A DNA stretch of 20,088 bases from an uncultured Deinococcales bacterium (GTDB lineage Bacteria > Deinococcota > Deinococci > Deinococcales > JAAFIG01): the NCBI GenBank assembly GCA_964244895.1, contig CAXTKV010000087.1:1-20088 (forward strand), written 5' to 3'. Shown one piece after another: positions 1,718-9,196 of this stretch. Each line of letters opens with the position of its first letter. Position 1 is the stretch's first letter. The notes under the pieces were generated by a model that worked only from the letters and a program-made list of their open reading frames with translations, did not search any database and was not told the origin of the DNA. The position numbers and the translations under genes are program-made.

Positions 1718-2110
1718 ATGCAACCGATGATCAGACCCAACCAAGCCCAAGCCGCCTCCGTCAGACGCTTCAACCTGCTGACCGTGCTGGTGATCCTGAC
1801 GGTCATCCTGGGTGGAATATCGCTGCGGGTCGGCGAGATCTCGCTCGGCATCCTGACCTGGGTGGCCGCCGCGATGCTGTGGCTGGTGCAGGGCATGGCC
1901 GCGAACCTGCGCGCCAGCAACGAACGCCTGGAAGCCGTCACCAAAGAAATCAGCGCCATGCGTCAGCTCCTCGCCATCACCGTGATGCGCGGCAACCCTG
2001 GCGGAGGAGAAACGTATGAACCAAAACCCAGCCAGGACGCACCAGCCGCCCGCAAACCGGACGCGCCTTCTATGCGTCATCCTGGCGTGCCTCAGCCTGC
2101 AGGCGACTAG
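1718..2110 (+). CDS. Small membrane protein (2 TM helices, short coiled coil, Pro-rich tail)
   Basis: GAGG just upstream of the ATG; two hydrophobic segments; [22 protein letters not shown] heptad pattern; GC-rich third codon positions. Confidence 0.75.
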
Positions 2111-2513
2111 TTTCGCCTGCGGGTACATCCCCCAGAACCTCAACAACTGGACGGCCTACTACGCCAAAGGCTTCGGGCTCGAGCCGGAGTTGCTGACCGC
2201 GCTGATCTGGGTCGAATCGCGCTACTGCGCGGACGCGGTCAGTCCCGCCGGAGCCATCGGTCTGGGTCAACTGATGCCCGCCACCGCCCGCACGCTCAAA
2301 GTCGATCCGCGCGACCCCGTGCAGAACCTGTACGGCGCGGCCAAGTACCTGCGCGCCCAGTGGGACACCTTTCAGGACTGGTCGCTGGCGCTGGCCGCGT
2401 ACAACGCCGGGCCCGACAACGTGCGCCGTTACGGGGGCGTACCACCCTTCCCGGAAACCCAGAATTACGTGAGGTCGGTGCTGAATGTCTACTTCTCCAT
2501 CAAACGCAATTGA
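2016..2513 (+). CDS. Lytic transglycosylase (SLT domain) with signal peptide
   Basis: ALIWVES (catalytic Glu), [23 protein letters not shown] and ETQNYV motifs; GGAGGAG RBS upstream. Confidence 0.95.
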
Positions 2514-3504
2514 GCGCCCGTTGCCGCGCGAAATCACCGAAACGCTCGAGACGGATTCCGCCGAGGGAATCGCCCAGACGCACGTTCCCGAAATCGCGCC
2601 GATCGACGGCTTCGATCAACTCTTGCGCCTGCTGCCCGGCTGGATCAGGCTGATCGCCGAAGCGCACCAGGACGCGCTCGAGGAAATCGCGATGGACATC
2701 GGCAAGCCCTTGGCCTTGCGTTTCGACGGCCACCACAAGCTTTTTGACCGCGAGATCGAAGAGCGCGACCTGGAATACGTGGTGGACAGGGCGGGCCAGT
2801 TCCGGGCCGACAACCGCCTCGGCATCGACCGCACCTTGCACCGCATCAGCGCCAAACGCGACCGTTACGATTACCTGGACGGCCTGACCATCCGCGTGGC
2901 CCGCATGGTGCTGGGCGTGGCCGAAATCCTGCGCGAGTACATCGAAGCCTCGAGCGGATTCATGCTGATCGGGCCACCGGGCGTCGGCAAGACCACCTTG
3001 CTGCGCGACATCGTGCGCATCTGCGCCGAGAAAGCCGGGCCGAAAGTCATCGTGATCGACACCTCCAACGAAATCGGTGGCGACGGGCGCCTGGTTCACC
3101 CCGGCCTGGGTTCGGCGCGCCGCATGCAAGTCAATTCTCCCGACCAGCAAGCCAAGATGATCATGCAGGCCATCGCCAACCACGGCCCCGAAATCATCGT
3201 CTGCGACGAAATCGGCTACCACGGCGACGTGGCCGTCATCCAGACCGCCGCCCGTCGCGGCGTCGGCGTGATCGCCACCGCGCACGGCAAGATTTTCCAG
3301 GATGTCCTCGAGAACCCCGTCTTTCACCCCTTGATGGGCGATTTCGACATCGATTCCGGCAAGCGCCGCTCCAGACCCGTCTTCGATGCCGCCGTCGAGA
3401 TTCGCGCCAAAGGCAAATTCATCGTGCATCCCAGCGTGGCTAACGCGGTGGACAACCTGATGTCCATCGGTGATCCCGGCGGTCTTCAGATCGGTCGTTG
3501 GTAA
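2485..3504 (+). CDS. SpoIIIAA/Ycf45-like P-loop ATPase
   Basis: [19 protein letters not shown], Walker [21 protein letters not shown], Walker B IIVCDEIG and IATAHG motifs; GAGGT RBS at 2471-2475; no C-terminal R3H domain. Confidence 0.9.
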
Positions 3505-3517
3505 AACGTTGGCTCCA

Positions 3518-3578
3518 AGGAGCACCGTCCAGCACGGTGTTCCTCGAGATTCTAAAATGGCGTGCTGGACGGTGTCCT
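3518..3578. repeat. REP-like inverted pair
   Basis: CACCGTCCAGCACG (3523-3536) and its exact reverse complement CGTGCTGGACGGTG (3561-3574), right after the ATPase stop. Confidence 0.75.
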
Positions 3579-3693
3579 GAAAAGTGGCACCCCGGCGGAA
3601 CCCTGTTCAGGAACCAAAAAGAGAGCGTTTCTTACATCTCAGAAACGACACCGCGATGTAGATTCATCGTGTCGTTGACGAGAATATTGAAAA

Positions 3694-4170
3694 TTGCGCA
3701 ACCTCATTGCACGGCTTGCCCACCTGAGATATCAGCAGCAAGCAAACATCCTGCTCTCCCTCGAGAGCCAATACCTGGAAATGGCCCTCAAGCTTCTCAC
3801 CTCGAAGCTTGGAACTCCGCAAGCCATCGTCCTGGCGACCCATTTTGGAAACCCCGCCCCGGTTTTCCAGGATTGGGACGCGAGGCTCCGGCTCTACCTG
3901 AGCGGCCCTCAACACGACGCACAAACGACCTCCGAGTTCATCCTCGAGGGTCTGCGTCTGGGCGTCTACAGCGACGAAGAGGCAGCCCAAGCCCATATCA
4001 GTTTCTATCTCGCCCTCCTCGTCAGAAGAGGGAATCTGGTTCCATTCTGGAACGAACTGGTCAACGCGATTGGCCTGCAAAAACTCAAGGCCGCTCTGGA
4101 AACGGATACTGCGCGTCAACGCTTAGGTGACGCACTCGATCCACTCCTTACGGAATTGAGGGCTTTGTAG
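3694..4170 (+). CDS. Hypothetical alpha-helical protein, remotely related to the two downstream small proteins
   Basis: 158-aa ORF with protein-like composition; shares LIxR and LxxALKLL motifs with the 4946-5197 product. The TTG start has no clear RBS. Confidence 0.65.
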   Translation: MRNLIARLAHLRYQQQANILLSLESQYLEMALKLLTSKLGTPQAIVLATHFGNPAPVFQDWDARLRLYLSGPQHDAQTTSEFILEGLRLGVYSDEEAAQAHISFYLALLVRRGNLVPFWNELVNAIGLQKLKAALETDTARQRLGDALDPLLTELRAL

Positions 4171-4261
4171 GTCTGAAACGTGAATTGGGCTTTGCTCAGT
4201 TCACGTTTCTTTTTGTGGCGCATTTAGTGAAGTGTTTAAAGTGCTCATAGCCATTTTTGAA

Positions 4262-4344
4262 TAAGATCTGGGTGGTGGCTTCGCCATCGAGTTCCTTGAC
4301 AGCTTCAGCTGCGAAGCCATTCTTGGTTTCTGAGAATGCTATGC
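4262..4344 (+). promoter_or_regulatory. Putative -10 box plus conserved structured 5' leader, cassette 1
   Basis: TAAGAT (4262-4267) lies 7 nt before the conserved leader, which starts GTGGCT at 4275. Core GTTCCTTGACAGCTTC (4291-4306) is identical in cassette 2. Perfect 9-bp stem 4276-4284/4311-4319. Confidence 0.55.
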
Positions 4345-4376
4345 GCAATCGTTCTATTATTTTTGTGAGCAAAATC

Positions 4377-4643
4377 ATGATTCAACCCGAAACAGAACAC
4401 TTGATAGATACGTGTATTACAGAGCTCCGGAATGCACGTGAAAACAATGAAACCGAAAAACTCCTGAACGCACTGGCCTTTCTGGCTCGAAAGAGCGATA
4501 GAGATACAGTAGCTGATTGGATAAACACTGCAATTGATTTGATTAATCGAAATGAAAAATCTGCGGACATTTTAGTAACTGTTCTCAAGAGTCGTTCAGT
4601 TGATGCAATCAACAATGCGTTAACTGCTCTTCGCAGCCGATAG
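4377..4643 (+). CDS. Small helical protein (88 aa), cassette 1
   Basis: MIQPET...NALTALRSR*; paralog of 4946-5197, which fixes the start at ATG 4377; AT-rich codons; followed by a terminator. Confidence 0.75.
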   Translation: MIQPETEHLIDTCITELRNARENNETEKLLNALAFLARKSDRDTVADWINTAIDLINRNEKSADILVTVLKSRSVDAINNALTALRSR

Positions 4644-4698
4644 TCTGCCAAGACCCTCGAGAACATTGAGTCCTCACTCTCTGTTCTCGAGGTTTTTC
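4629..4698 (+). repeat. 70-nt direct repeat, copy 1 (ORF end plus terminator)
   Basis: 67/70 identical to 5183-5252 by manual alignment. Confidence 0.95.
4655..4697 (+). terminator. Intrinsic terminator, cassette 1
   Basis: CCTCGAGAACA/TGTTCTCGAGG 11-bp stem plus GAGT/ACTC upper stem, followed by TTTTT. Confidence 0.85.
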
Positions 4699-4706
4699 TT
4701 TTCAAG

Positions 4707-4764
4707 GATGCCGTACCAGACAGCGTTTTTTGGATAGCAAACCTTGCGTTCCGCACGGTGTTTT
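4707..4764. repeat. Degenerate REP-like pair
   Basis: GATGCCGTACCAGACAGCGTT differs from AACACCGTGCTGGACGGTGTT only by transitions; second copy GCGTTCCGCACGGTGTTTT. Confidence 0.5.
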
Positions 4765-4820
4765 TAAGCTTTTGACTGCGGACTGCGTGCGGTGTCAGCG
4801 CCTTCAACGCCACTTTCAAC

Positions 4821-4903
4821 TATATTGAACTCAGTGGCTTTGCCGCTGCGTTCCTTGACAGCTTCGGCTTGCGAACCCATTCGTGGGTCTCGAGGATGTT
4901 TGC
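4821..4903 (+). promoter_or_regulatory. Putative -10 box plus conserved structured 5' leader, cassette 2
   Basis: TATATT (4821-4826) lies 7 nt before GTGGCT (4834), the same spacing as cassette 1; core GTTCCTTGACAGCTTC at 4850-4865. Confidence 0.55.
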
Positions 4904-4945
4904 AGCACAGACACTGTTTTTGTTGTTATTCGGAGAATTTAAACA

Positions 4946-5197
4946 ATGCAACCTGAAACTTCTGTTCTCTTGAATGCAGTCTGCGAGGCTTTCCGAGCTA
5001 AGCGGTTGCGGAAAGAAAGCATCGCAGATGCTCTCCTTTTGTGCGTTTTCGATCCCCTTAATCAGGGTGAGGATGTCCAACGACTGCTCAGTCTGATTGA
5101 TCGTGGCGAGGAAACTCAGGATGCTCTTGTCAAAATGCTAAGTGCTGTACCTACAGTCTCGCTTGACAACGCCTTGAAACTGCTTCGCAGCCGATAG
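4946..5197 (+). CDS. Small helical protein (83 aa), cassette 2
   Basis: GGAGA RBS at 4932-4936; MQPET...NALKLLRSR*; paralog of 4377-4643. Confidence 0.8.
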   Translation: MQPETSVLLNAVCEAFRAKRLRKESIADALLLCVFDPLNQGEDVQRLLSLIDRGEETQDALVKMLSAVPTVSLDNALKLLRSR

Positions 5198-5252
5198 TCT
5201 GCCAAGACCCTCGAGAACACTGAGTCCTTACTCTTTGTTCTCGAGGTTTTTC
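5183..5252 (+). repeat. 70-nt direct repeat, copy 2 (ORF end plus terminator)
   Basis: 67/70 identical to 4629-4698. Confidence 0.95.
5209..5251 (+). terminator. Intrinsic terminator, cassette 2
   Basis: Same 11-bp CCTCGAGAACA/TGTTCTCGAGG stem followed by TTTTT. Confidence 0.85.
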
Positions 5253-5255
5253 ATG

Positions 5256-5311
5256 GCACCGTGATGCACGGTGTTTCTCGAGTCTCAAATATTGCGCCCT
5301 GGACGGTATTC
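5256..5311. repeat. REP-like pair
   Basis: GCACCGTG-ATG-CACGGTGT (5256-5274) and GCGCCCTGGACGGTATTC (about 5294-5311). Confidence 0.6.
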
Positions 5312-5374
5312 GTGGGAATCAGTATTTTCGAGGGACGCAAGGGATTCATCGAACCATAAGAGCTGACTGCATTC

Positions 5375-5418
5375 AAAAAGAAGCCGAAGCGCGAGGTGAG
5401 ACCTCGCACTTCGACTTC
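5375..5418 (-). terminator. Intrinsic terminator of the diguanylate cyclase gene
   Basis: 18-bp stem 5380-5397/5401-5418; its two mismatches become G-U pairs on the minus strand, where a U5 run follows. Confidence 0.85.
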
Positions 5419-5426
5419 AGCGCATT

Positions 5427-6059
5427 CTAGGAGTCCGAACCCGTGTCATCACCCCGGACGCAGTTGCGCCCTTCCGCTTTGGCGCGGTAGAGGTTCTTGT
5501 CCGCTTGTTCAGCAGACGAGAAACTCCAGCCAATGCTGACGGTGACGTGAATTCCGGTGCTCCAGAAAATGTTTTCTGAAGCGGCCACCCGAAGTTGCTC
5601 GCAGCGTTGCGTTACCGCAGCTTGAGCATCTGGCTGCACCACGAGAAGAGCAGTGAACTCTTCGCCGCCGGTGCGCGCCACCACATCGGAACCCCGAAAG
5701 AGCGTATTTGAAGTTTGAGCAACCGCGAGAAGAACCAGATCGCCGCGTGAGTGCCCCCAGGTGTCGTTCACGACTTTGAAGTGATCCAAATCGAAAACGA
5801 TCCAGGCTATTGCGAGCCTTTCACGCTCAGATCTTAAAATCTCACGCCCGAGCGCTTGCTCGAGTCCTCGGCGGTTGAGCATCCCGGTTAAGGGGTCTTG
5901 CGCAACCTCGAGTTGAAGCTGTTCAATCTCAAGCTGAGCAGCGCTCATTTGACGCCTGAGATGAATGTTCTCACCTCGCAAAGCTGTCAAATTCAGCTGC
6001 TTTCCGGCCAAGACTGAACAAACGATGAGCAGTGCGATCAGAAGATAGATGACCAACAT
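5427..6059 (-). CDS. Membrane-anchored diguanylate cyclase (GGDEF domain)
   Basis: N-terminal TM helix and coiled coil; DPLTGMLNRR, FDLDHFKVVNDTWGHSRGD, I-site RGSD, GGEEF and LYRAKAEGRN motifs. Confidence 0.93.
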   Translation of the reverse strand: MLVIYLLIALLIVCSVLAGKQLNLTALRGENIHLRRQMSAAQLEIEQLQLEVAQDPLTGMLNRRGLEQALGREILRSERERLAIAWIVFDLDHFKVVNDTWGHSRGDLVLLAVAQTSNTLFRGSDVVARTGGEEFTALLVVQPDAQAAVTQRCEQLRVAASENIFWSTGIHVTVSIGWSFSSAEQADKNLYRAKAEGRNCVRGDDTGSDS

Positions 6060-6688
6060 AAAAATATCTCGATAAACAACTTAGATTCGTTCCAAGAAAA
6101 CACATCGGAACGCTTCAATGATCTTGCGATCACTGAAATGAACACGGGTTGGTTCTCAAGAAACGCGGCAACGAAAAGCGAGGCTTTCCGCCGTTCCCGC
6201 GATCCTAACGATCCAGCGTGCCCATCAAGGCAGAAGCGCACATCGTGTCGGCGGCATCGAACTCTCGAGAAACGGGGCTTGAGGGAATAACTGTCCGGGC
6301 GTGCGTTGACACGCATATCGACCGATGTACACGCGTTAGATTGCATTCACCGGTCAGATGGCTCGGGCCGGTCTCTCCTCCAAAGCCCGCCACCGCTGCA
6401 CCCGGTGGCGGGTCATTCGTGGTGAGAATCCGTGCGTTCAGAAAACATCCAGGCCAGCGTTTTGAACGGCTCTGGCGGGCGGGATCATCGCGCAGGGCGT
6501 CAGCCCTCGTTACTGGCAAGTGACCGGAGCGAGTTTAAGGTGATCCGGTGGAACGCGATCAAGAAGTCTCCCGAAACTATTTTTCGCGTCCAACACGGAT
6601 TGGTTTCTGGTCAATCGGTCATCTTTGCTCATCTGCCCCAGAGACTCATGGCGTTCTTCACATGTTGATAATCATCGAAGGATAAATA

Positions 6689-9196
6689 ATGCGGCGAACT
6701 GATCGACCTGCGGCTCAGAAACCTGATCGACATCTCGCCCGTCAAAGTTCAAACAACCAACTGGCCAACCGCGAAGCCTCCGAAATTCACGGTTCAGCGC
6801 ACGAGATACAGTCGTTTCGGCATGGTTTGAGGCTCGAACATCTACCGGAAGTCAGGAGCAGCGTGATCGTTGATCGTCCGCATTTCAGCCTTCCGATGGC
6901 TCCGCCCGATCCATTTATTGGTCGGACGCTCGAGTTGCAAACCATGCGGAACTTGTTTGGCGAGACGACGCGCTTGATCACGGTTGTTGGCCCCGGCGGG
7001 GTCGGTAAGACGCGTCTGGCGCTCGAGTTCGTGCAGACGATCGGGGCAGCCTTCAAGGATGGCGTCTGGTTCGTGGACTTGAGCGCGATCAACGATGTCG
7101 AACACGCACTAACCGCGCTCACAGGCGCAATGCGGCTGCAGTTGCGCGAAGATCAGGTGCGCCAGGGCTTGTCGAATTTCCTGCGATCCAGAGAGATTCT
7201 GCTGGTGCTGGACAACCTCGAGCAGATTCCGAACGTGAGCCGGGAAGTGGCGGGGTTGCTGGCGGACGCCCCGAGTTTGAAGATCGTGGCCACGAGCCGT
7301 CAACCGTTGATGATCAGAGGCGAGCAACGCTACCCGCTCAAGGCGCTGGGCTTGCCCGACGAAACATCCGATCCAGAGGCCATCTCGAGCGCTCTGGCGG
7401 TCGAATTGCTGGTTTGCCGGGCGCGCGCCATCCGATCCGATTTCAAGTTGACCGCGCAGAACACGATGGCGGTCGCGCAGTTGTGCCGGGCGCTGGACGG
7501 TTTGCCGCTCGCGTTGGAACTCGCGGCGGCGCACTTGGATACGATGTCTCCGGGATCGCTGTTGCGGCATTTGCACGAACACCAGGACTTGCCCATCAGC
7601 CGGGACCGGGACAGGCCCGCTCGGCAGCGTTCGTTGATGGCTTCAGCCCGCTGGAGCTACGAGCTCCTGGATGCGCCGGATCGTTTCTTGTTTCGTCAGC
7701 TCGGCATTCTGACCGATGATTTCGGGCTCGAGGTGATCGAGGCGCTGACCTGCGAAGAACGCCCCGACACGCTCGAGGCGCTGGTTCGGCTGGTGGATCG
7801 GCACCTGATCGAACCGAACCGATCGGGTGCCGAAATGCGTTTTTGCATTCCTGAAACCCTGAGGGCTTTCGCGCTCGAGCAACTTTTCCGGATGGGTGAA
7901 CTCGACGCAGCTCAGGCGCTCCACGCGAAGTTCTTCGTTGGCTTTACCGAAAAAGCCAGCCTTCACCTGCACGGCGCCGAAGGGCAGGTCTGGCTGGAAC
8001 GGCTCGATCACGAAGCGCGCAACTTGCAGACGACCCTGAGCTGGTGCTTTCAGGGCGACGCGCAACTCGGCGTGCGGTTGTGCCTGGCGCTCGGTGTGTA
8101 CTGGACGATCCGGGGCGATTCCAACCAGGGACGGGATTGGTTGATGCGGGCGCTCGAGCACGCGCCGGAGCCGAGCGCCGTGCGAGCGCAACTGCTGAAT
8201 AGCCTCGAAGACCTGGCGGTGATCGCGGGCAACATCGAGAGCGCTGCGGCCTTCGCCGAGGAAGCCGCCTCGATCTGGTTGTTGCTCGAGCGCGCGCAGG
8301 AAAGTTTCAAGGGGCTGACTTCGTTGGCCAGGGCAGCCTGGTATCGCGGGGCGTTTGATCGCGCCGCACAGATTTTCGAACGGGCGCTCGACCTGAATCG
8401 CAGTCCACGGTACGACACGCCGCACATCAGGGCGCTGATCGGTCTGGCCAGCATTCATTTGCAAAGCGGCTCGTTCGAGCGGGCCGCCGCCTTGTTGAAC
8501 GAAAGTTTGCAGGTGGCCCGCAAACAAAGCGACTGGTACGCGGCCATTTCGATTCTTTGCGATCTGGGCTGGTTGCGAGCGCGGTTGGACGATCCGATTC
8601 AGGCGGCCAAGCTGCTGCTCGAGGGGCTGGAACTGGCCCGATCCTGGCAGGACACGCCGCACTTGGTGCTGATCCTCGAACACTTGGCGCTGGTCGCCAC
8701 GAAACAGAATTTGCCGGAGCTGGCGTTGCGATTGCACGCCTGCTGCACCGCACAGATCGAGGTTTGCGGTCTTCGGCTCGAGCCGGCCCGATTCGCGGAG
8801 CGCGATGCGCGGCTCGAGGCTCTGCGCGTTCAGGTGAGCGCAGCGGTGTTTCAGGACGCGATGCGAGAAGGGGCTCAACTGAGCTTGCTGGATGTCGAAC
8901 GCGTCTGGGTTTCGGCGCTCGAACAGGCGCCCGCCCTCAGCGCATCACCGAAGGAACTCAGGCTTCGTCACGTCGAACTGAGCCCCAGAGAACTCGAGGT
9001 GTTGCAGTACGTGGCGACCGGTGAAACCACGAAAAAGATCGCGCTGATGCTCGGCGTTTCACCCAGCACGGTGCGCTTCCACGTGGAATCGATCTTCCGA
9101 AAGCTCTTGTGTCACACGCGCGCCGAGGCGGTGCGCTTGGCCTCCGAGAACGGTTTGCTGGCCTCGATCGAGCCGAAATCGGCGATCAATGACTGA
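6689..9196 (+). CDS. STAND-type regulator: NB-ARC-like ATPase, TPR region and C-terminal LuxR HTH
   Basis: FIGR, Walker A GPGGVGKT, Walker B LLVLDN, LDGLPLALELAA, helical repeats and LSPRELEVL...IALMLGVSPSTVRFHVESIFRKL. The start could be later (GTG 6863). Confidence 0.92.
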   Translation: MRRTDRPAAQKPDRHLARQSSNNQLANREASEIHGSAHEIQSFRHGLRLEHLPEVRSSVIVDRPHFSLPMAPPDPFIGRTLELQTMRNLFGETTRLITVVGPGGVGKTRLALEFVQTIGAAFKDGVWFVDLSAINDVEHALTALTGAMRLQLREDQVRQGLSNFLRSREILLVLDNLEQIPNVSREVAGLLADAPSLKIVATSRQPLMIRGEQRYPLKALGLPDETSDPEAISSALAVELLVCRARAIRSDFKLTAQNTMAVAQLCRALDGLPLALELAAAHLDTMSPGSLLRHLHEHQDLPISRDRDRPARQRSLMASARWSYELLDAPDRFLFRQLGILTDDFGLEVIEALTCEERPDTLEALVRLVDRHLIEPNRSGAEMRFCIPETLRAFALEQLFRMGELDAAQALHAKFFVGFTEKASLHLHGAEGQVWLERLDHEARNLQTTLSWCFQGDAQLGVRLCLALGVYWTIRGDSNQGRDWLMRALEHAPEPSAVRAQLLNSLEDLAVIAGNIESAAAFAEEAASIWLLLERAQESFKGLTSLARAAWYRGAFDRAAQIFERALDLNRSPRYDTPHIRALIGLASIHLQSGSFERAAALLNESLQVARKQSDWYAAISILCDLGWLRARLDDPIQAAKLLLEGLELARSWQDTPHLVLILEHLALVATKQNLPELALRLHACCTAQIEVCGLRLEPARFAERDARLEALRVQVSAAVFQDAMREGAQLSLLDVERVWVSALEQAPALSASPKELRLRHVELSPRELEVLQYVATGETTKKIALMLGVSPSTVRFHVESIFRKLLCHTRAEAVRLASENGLLASIEPKSAIND

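Follow-up and report, generated by a model that had tools for sequence, protein, structure and literature searches.

Why should two neighboring genes of an uncultured Deinococcales bacterium have kept their flanks nearly unchanged while the small proteins encoded between them drifted apart? The question is raised by a contig of 20,088 nt (CAXTKV010000087.1, or C87, of assembly GCA_964244895.1), the whole of which is referred to here as the window. The assembly comprises 5.12 Mb in 328 contigs with a GC content of 62.7%. Within the window lie two tandem units, unit 1 at 4275–4697 and unit 2 at 4834–5251, in which a conserved leader, a small open reading frame (ORF) and a tail with a terminator follow one another and in which the leader is complementary to the tail. 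The answer that we favor, tentatively and at a little under even confidence, is that the two ends of each mRNA may form a clamp similar to that of the hbs mRNA of Bacillus subtilis, which would control mRNA stability in a possibly termination-coupled manner. This reading rests on conservation, on thermodynamics and on one-sided base changes.

Both units, located on the forward strand, share the same order of elements: a TAnnnT box, 7 unconserved bases, a conserved leader starting with GTGGCTT, a U-rich stretch, the ORF and the terminator-bearing tail. In unit 1, a candidate -10 box (TAAGAT, 4262–4267) is followed by the noncoding leader at 4275–4345, the predicted 5' untranslated region (UTR) running on to the ATG at 4377. 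ORF 1 (4377–4643) encodes the 88-aa protein P0001, which belongs to subfamily B and ends in LRSR, with a GC content at third codon positions (GC3) of 0.35 compared to 0.627 for the genome. In unit 2, the candidate -10 box (TATATT, 4821–4826), the leader (4834–4905) and ORF 2 (4946–5197), encoding the 83-aa P0002 of the same subfamily, are arranged in the same way. The two tails (4626–4697 and 5183–5251) are 96% identical, and the three positions at which they differ all fall within the terminator loop region. By folding and genome scan, each tail ends in an intrinsic terminator with an 11-bp stem and T5, at 4655–4697 in unit 1 (stem 4655–4665 with 4682–4692) and at 5209–5251 in unit 2. The coordinates and twin layout described in an earlier, sequence-only reading of this stretch were borne out, as were the identical 16-mer GTTCCTTGACAGCTTC (4291–4306 and 4850–4865), the near-identity of the tails and the estimate of about 30% protein identity, which we measured at 31%. 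Likewise, conservation of the flanks was found to exceed that of the coding middle by far.

A DNA search of the genome added a third locus to this observation. The third leader lies on the minus strand of contig C154 and belongs to a complete unit 3, consisting of TATTTT, 7 nt, the leader, the 87-aa paralog P0003 and its own, different terminator. Using a profile of the three leaders, we detected a fourth, decayed copy on the minus strand of contig C17 (C17:12301–12371, equivalent to L017:2800–2872), which keeps TACACT, the 7-nt spacing and GTGGC (nhmmer E 0.0026, covariance model 56.8 bits). Overall, the leader matches four times in the genome, with nhmmer E-values of 1.8e-23 (unit 2), 3.6e-21 (unit 1), 6.1e-19 and 0.0026 and covariance model scores of 57–71 bits. 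The protein is present in three copies and the tail sequence of units 1 and 2 occurs twice. The fourth leader precedes an AT-rich 83-aa ORF (L017:2527–2778, minus strand) outside the family, and neither of the two ORFs that follow this leader is akin to the small proteins (hhalign probability 0.2%). The expectation that the leader and tail would mark more cassettes with different ORFs was therefore not fulfilled beyond this one decayed leader ahead of an unrelated ORF. About 500 nt downstream of the fourth leader we noted a tail-like TTCTGCCTCAAGG..CTCGAG stretch, and the minimum free energy (MFE) structure of this locus pairs a leader segment weakly (~8 bp) with bases just before a terminator.

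The leader copies are separated by indels of 1, 1 and 2 nt that break the reading frame, and for this reason we consider the leader noncoding. Its block GTTCCTTGACAG..CTTC.GC.TGCGAA is nevertheless close to invariant. The ORFs of the three units are 28–35% identical and range in GC3 from 0.35 to 0.73; at identical residues, units 1 and 2 use the same codon in 12 of 29 cases, and the other two comparisons gave 12/30 and 10/27. Given this low codon sharing and the spread in GC3, divergence of the ORFs is old and synonymous sites are saturated, so that conservation of the flanks does not come from recent duplication. A metagenomic relative, P0004, is 69% identical to P0003 and carries an N-terminal extension that corresponds to a translated leader. 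Since 24 of 32 residues of this extension match the unit-3 leader read in that frame, the leader is conserved outside this genome as well.

Is the leader part of the mRNA? TAnnnT is found exactly 7 nt ahead of the leader in all four copies, with a different 7-nt spacer in each, and such a fixed distance fits a promoter with a -10 element only. In Deinococcus deserti, a -10 motif lies ahead of 94% of transcription start sites, and no -35 motif was detected, as stated in the part of the report consulted (PMC4007540). The sequence-only reading had considered that TTGACA might instead act as a -35 box, with transcription starting below the leader. The sequence argues against this possibility, as TAnnnT precedes the leader in 4/4 copies and no TAnnnT is found 16–19 nt downstream of TTGACA in any of them. 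Transcription would then start about 7 nt after TAnnnT, and the leader would be included in the mRNA.

The complementarity between leader and tail was confirmed at the positions originally proposed, 4295–4316 with 4629–4652 in unit 1 and 4854–4875 with 5184–5206 in unit 2. The leader strand coincides with the best-conserved leader block, and G4866 of unit 2 repairs the A4307-C mismatch of unit 1, also as proposed. The 3' strand consists of the last codons, the stop codon and the first 3'-UTR bases (in unit 1 the last four codons, TAG at 4641–4643 and 9 nt of 3' UTR; in unit 2 it includes TAG at 5195–5197) and stops 2–3 nt short of the terminator hairpin. When units 1 and 2 were folded with RNAfold, the check suggested earlier, the helix was present in the MFE structure of both. 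It is in fact found in that of all three full-length units, with 16, 15 and 22 pairs and mean pair probabilities of 0.76, 0.94 and 0.97 (units 1, 2 and 3, here and below). Whole-unit folding z-scores were -3.5, -4.4 and -5.1, and limiting the pair span to 250 nt cost 3.3, 5.2 and 10.1 kcal/mol. The core duplex energies of -25.8, -25.8 and -31.1 kcal/mol were matched by 27, 83 and 2 random genome windows per 40000. An ungapped repeat finder also recovered the proximal 12 nt of the unit-1 helix. A second complementarity exists between the 3' part of the unit-2 leader (4888–4905) and both 4645–4662 and 5199–5216 (18 nt, 83%); it centers on the CTCGAG palindrome and could form at the expense of the main helix or the terminator.

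The case for the helix rests above all on its recurrence in unit 3, whose tail differs. A comparison by eye of the alignment and the duplex folds gave 5 substitutions and 2 insertions in the unit-3 tail CTTCGCAGGCCGCAAGACTGATCGAG relative to the tail of units 1 and 2, CTTCGCAGCCGATAGTCTGCCAAG. All pairs survive these changes in the fold-derived register, and unit 3 pairs better than units 1 and 2: a C-to-U change repairs an A-C mismatch, an A-to-G change yields a G-U pair, an inserted G pairs with an extra U that is present in the unit-2 and unit-3 leaders, and the other changes are located in bulges. Among 5000 random mutants of the unit-1 tail carrying an equal number of changes, 16–18 reached the observed energy and 173–209 kept the unmutated energy. 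In addition, 90.5% of the cells of a MAFFT alignment are paired in register, compared to 26–38% when the 3' partner is slid by 1–3 columns. The tail nucleotides are also kept across a change of frame between the two subfamilies. Subfamily B ends in CTT CGC AGC CGA TAG and subfamily A in CTT CGC AGG CCG CAA GAC TGA; part of the conserved tail therefore encodes protein in one subfamily but belongs to the 3' UTR in the second.

These observations bear on a first alternative, namely that conservation of the leader has nothing to do with the tail and reflects something else, such as an operator or roadblock for a regulator, a site for an RNA-bound protein or a local 5'-UTR fold, and that the complementarity is incidental. 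We regard this explanation as unlikely, though as one to be taken seriously. It has to contend with a diverged unit-3 tail that kept and improved its complementarity, as few of the random mutants did, with the retention of the tail nucleotides CTTCGCAG..CCG..AG.CTG through the frame change, and with CTT CGC encoding Leu-Arg in all three ORFs despite the spread in GC3. On the other hand, the leader has a dyad symmetry of its own, GCTTC-N6-GAAGC in unit 1 and TTCG-N5-CGAA in units 2 and 3, although spacing that varies among copies is ill-suited to a protein site. An incidental complementarity would also agree with the consensus local fold of the leader, one hairpin of which carries a G-U to C-G change, and by chance alone a fair fraction of mRNAs of 400 nt should contain a single helix this strong. 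Covariation, which the sequence-only reading had proposed to test, is of no help to the clamp, as 0/21 pairs change on both sides.

Several further points weigh against a clamp. In the MAFFT register, 14 of the 21 pairs are invariant, 2 change on one side and 5 depart through unpaired cells, and the shuffle control for covariation is powerless with three sequences. Each helix taken alone is only modestly unusual: with about 400 windows per mRNA and p of about 1e-3, the expectation is about 0.3 for units 1 and 2. When paired with the 70-nt leader, other ORF windows match or beat the tail in unit 2 (-36.6 vs -36.4) and unit 3 (-43.9 vs -37.9). The local leader fold, in which UCCUUG pairs with CGAGGA next to the small hairpin with its G-U to C-G change, is plausible and would form first, during transcription, and ribosomes would melt a helix over the stop codon as they translate. 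In P0004, a Pro-to-Thr change near the C-terminus, deduced from the protein sequence, would disrupt a G-C pair. The unit-1 and unit-2 tails are 96% identical even in the terminator loop region, which looks like gene conversion and not like selection. Finally, the complementarity would equally serve a model operating in trans or at the level of DNA.

A trans model would have the tail and terminator act as a 3'-derived small RNA, or one mRNA pair with another, so that a paralog would exert control over the leaders of its sister units. Small RNAs derived from 3' ends typically consist of a seed and, after it, a terminator hairpin. Cross pairs equal or beat those in cis, for example the unit-1 leader with the unit-2 tail (-29.5 kcal/mol) and the unit-2 leader with the unit-3 tail (-31.2 kcal/mol), and the cross-unit match was also found by the repeat finder. 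Pairing in cis is kinetically favored, however, and relatives elsewhere are known as single proteins, so we consider regulation between paralogs improbable.

We assign a similarly low probability to a function of the repeats in DNA, either as sites for inversion of the ORF segment or as conserved flanks through which divergent ORFs are swapped by recombination. In T4-type phages, promoter/stem-loop cassettes have been proposed to swap ORFs by recombination. The conserved flanks around a diverged middle are what such swapping would produce, the identity of the unit 1 and unit 2 tails including the terminator loop region suggests gene conversion, and the units sit in a low-GC island. Moreover, the top-strand A-C mismatches of units 1 and 2 become G-T on the bottom strand. 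This strand signal is inconsistent, however, since unit 3 favors the top strand with two G-U pairs. The repeats have bulges and indels that differ between copies and are internal to the conserved block instead of lying at its ends, and no recombinase or transposase family was matched among the 28 larger window ORFs scanned.

The terminator stem also counts toward a DNA-level explanation, as it derives from a repeat resembling repetitive extragenic palindromes (REP-like). In units 1 and 2 it equals the outer stem of the REP-like CTCGAGAACA...TGTTCTCGAG family of this genome, which comprises 22 palindromes, two of them being these terminators. Beyond the shared outer stem the likeness ends: the REP-like core ACCGT...ACGGT is unrelated to the inner hairpin of the two terminators, unit 3 has a different terminator altogether, and the leader-tail helix lies outside the REP-like part. 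We also observed REP-like palindromes of the form CTCGAGAACACCGT...ACGGTGTTCTCGAG scattered over the genome, with a variant directly after unit 2, and CTCGAG-type repeats in the window, for example at 5255–5282, with remnants at 4705–4760. CTCGAG itself occurs 21883 times in the 5.12 Mb, compared to 60–568 times for four other palindromic hexamers. An extension of the helix by TCGAG (4287–4291) with CTCGA (4656–4660), suggested earlier, had to be dropped, as it is not conserved in unit 2, competes with the terminator stem and involves this abundant motif.

Could the pairing instead keep a toxin mRNA inert? The hok and aapA systems encode short hydrophobic toxins, with a masked ribosome binding site and an antisense RNA partner, and a type I toxin-antitoxin-like module on these lines would account for long-range 5'-3' pairing. 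Short U-rich upstream frames do encode hydrophobic peptides in unit 1 (4336–4368, MLCAIVLLFL) and unit 2 (4896–4973, 25 aa). These mini-ORFs were rejected as candidates, as they are not conserved and the upstream ATG of unit 3 is in frame and continuous with the main ORF. The main product of 83–88 aa is predicted to be a soluble five-helix protein (pLDDT 92), PADLOC gave no match, and predicted accessibility of the region from the Shine-Dalgarno (SD) sequence to the AUG is unaffected by the helix. Nor is there clear support for an antisense RNA gene: a promoter scan gave 2 sigma-70-like sites in total vs 1.7 expected from shuffles, both on the bottom strand, one of them at 4385–4356 (9/12 matches) opposite the ORF 1 start. 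We regard this explanation as close to refuted.

A broader toxin-antitoxin or defense role, raised in the sequence-only reading, fares no better, as PADLOC, Pfam, PHROG and NCBIfam were all without match, the product is not a hydrophobic peptide and the helix lies off the ribosome binding site. PADLOC and PHROGs returned 0 matches for six family members each, Pfam 0 for P0001 and P0002, and NCBIfam 0 for P0001–P0003. AlphaFold2 produced a confident five-helix model (pLDDT 92.2, pTM 0.81) and Foldseek returned 0 PDB matches at E <= 0.001. On this modeling, the product is a soluble five-helix domain without a family, structure or defense match. Three weaker leads were set aside: the best wide VIA-align hit (filovirus VP30 C-terminal domain, Z 5.8) is below the meaningful level for helical bundles, the best PDB sequence profile hit (E 0.68) is not credible, and an 'Immunity protein 30' lead from a protein atlas (0.89) is weak and under the trust level. 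Profile search of 1.84 billion representatives yielded 4 relatives and word-indexed search 9. The family now counts 12 known members, including the three in this genome, in two subfamilies with RRPQD-like or LRSR-like ends. Four family clusters that were looked up directly are singletons, and the word-indexed clusters hold 1–2 sequences each (JGI, ENA, NCBI).

Beyond these relatives the searches were largely empty. No match was found for the whole unit at the DNA level in 60 relatives or for P0006 and P0007 as queries in a plasmid scan, and a scan of viral contigs was empty as well. In 362 and 363 other Deinococcota genomes, the protein profile had no match apart from one weak one inside a 700-aa frame. 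Of two metagenome scans, the first gave no relative and the second one chance match (L013) on the opposite strand of a 1184-aa frame; a 16-residue match in Jannaschia (L012) from a scan of genome contigs was also treated as chance. The leader covariance model, run against 150 relatives, gave foreign matches of <=21.2 bits throughout; 2 of 20 such loci were inspected (L019 and L020), and both fall in sequence that reads as coding.

A peculiarity of the leader should be mentioned separately. Its first 28 nt (4275–4302, 4834–4861 and the equivalents in units 3 and 4) are free of indels in the four copies, and the bottom strand reads AVKExxGxAT in 4/4 of them, with a synonymous GAA-to-GAG change in unit 4. 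Bottom-strand coding was considered and rejected, as the frames diverge on both sides and the sole Pfam match, DUF5988, is below its cut-off (18.8 vs 27 bits). The frame may be what is left of an older gene, or it may have arisen by chance.

How might a clamp of the proposed kind work? Each unit would represent a stand-alone small-protein gene whose leader of about 100 nt pairs with its own last codons, stop codon and first 3'-UTR bases, and in vivo the helix would form as a 5'-3' clamp beside the terminator hairpin. Its effect on ribosome binding can be judged from the folds. The leader partner occupies leader positions 21–43, about 60 nt ahead of the SD. When the tail strand is held open, as by a terminating ribosome, the cost is 12–18 kcal/mol, and the mean unpaired probability of the SD-AUG region with the helix and with the tail open is 0.46/0.45, 0.45/0.55 and 0.54/0.55 in units 1, 2 and 3. 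In these models the helix leaves predicted SD-AUG accessibility unchanged. The clamp would therefore differ from icaR and the type I toxin mRNAs, and it likely governs mRNA stability instead of ribosome binding. As in B. subtilis hbs, the helix may keep RNase Y, RNase J and 3' exonucleases away from the leader and from the 3' end. With the stop codon lying inside the helix, no ribosome could terminate without opening it, and decay would be coupled to translation. RNase J (535 bits) and RNase Y (625 bits) are both encoded in this genome above curated cut-offs. For RNase III, the assembly yielded a single match, to a C-terminal piece at C69:372–593 (model positions 142–216, 38.5 bits) near the start of its contig, and the gene may be cut by the assembly.

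Taken together, a closed-loop mRNA, one of the options originally listed, is the part of the earlier interpretation that fits best, although two-sided covariation was not found; its toxin-antitoxin or defense option and the cassettes with different ORFs were not supported. A bolder extension would be a self-contained, horizontally travelling module of gene plus RNA clamp, in which terminating ribosomes unzip the closure, the lifetime of the mRNA is counted in rounds of translation and pairing is kept through indels and the frame change, and this in a lineage whose mRNAs are mostly leaderless. We consider this extension rather doubtful.

The surroundings of the units offer some context. Units 1 and 2 lie inside a low-GC islet at about 3400–7000 (41–57% GC compared to 62–64% around it). 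Upstream of the units is an orphan 158-aa helical ORF (3694–4170) with its own terminator (4175–4209), and downstream lies a convergent GGDEF gene on the minus strand (5427–6059). The islet also holds the start of a LuxR-type STAND regulator gene (6689–9196). At 2016–3504, an SLT lytic transglycosylase gene overlaps a SpoIIIAA/secretion-type ATPase gene, with unassigned ORFs upstream of both; a secretion or transfer apparatus may have left these remnants beside the islet. Units 1 and 2 share no conserved neighbor gene with unit 3, and the genes stand alone.

To our knowledge, very few bacterial genes are documented to have mRNAs whose two ends pair in cis, the examples being hbs, icaR and the type I toxins. 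If the clamp is real, this locus would provide a natural case of such pairing conserved across diverged paralogs, and the position of the 3' strand over the stop codon would offer a direct handle on the coupling of termination and decay. Should the pairing turn out not to exist, what remains is two ordinary accessory ORFans side by side within a low-GC islet. In either case it flags a 12-member orphan protein family whose fold is confidently predicted yet unmatched. A real clamp would also extend 5'-3' pairing to the Deinococcota, among which D. deserti has 60% leaderless mRNAs (PMC4007540).

Compared with known systems, no Rfam 15 family matched at its gathering score in the window, and none at E <= 1 in L003 and L006. 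The units share with hok and aapA a long-distance 5'-3' helix in a short mRNA, but none of the hydrophobic toxin, the masking of the ribosome binding site and the antisense partner was seen here. In the icaR mRNA of Staphylococcus aureus, as far as the sections consulted describe it, the 3' UTR pairs with the SD region and blocks initiation (Ruiz de los Mozos et al. 2013, PMC3868564). Like icaR, the units would pair the two ends of one mRNA in cis, and the duplex is long enough to be a possible RNase III substrate. Unlike icaR, the helix neither pairs with the SD nor lowers its predicted accessibility, and this assembly shows only the partial RNase III match (38.5 bits).

The closest likeness is to hbs of B. 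subtilis. There, in the passages of the report relied on here, 14 nt of the 5' UTR, directly following a hairpin, pair with sequence immediately ahead of the terminator (-19 kcal/mol); this pairing limits cleavage by RNase Y, as proven with compensatory mutants (Braun, Durand and Condon 2017, PMC5737220). In contrast to hbs, the 3' strand in the Deinococcales units covers the last codons and the stop codon and not the 3' UTR alone, and the helix has 20–22 bp with bulges (-26 to -31 kcal/mol) compared to 14 perfect bp (-19 kcal/mol). The pairing here also recurs in paralogs of an orphan family, and it is predicted from sequence. As in hbs, the mRNA would be small and monocistronic with an unmasked ribosome binding site, and the RNase Y and RNase J decay machinery is encoded in the genome. 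Assuming the proposed transcription start, 3/3 units have one complementary segment in the 5' UTR and its partner shortly before the terminator, as does hbs.

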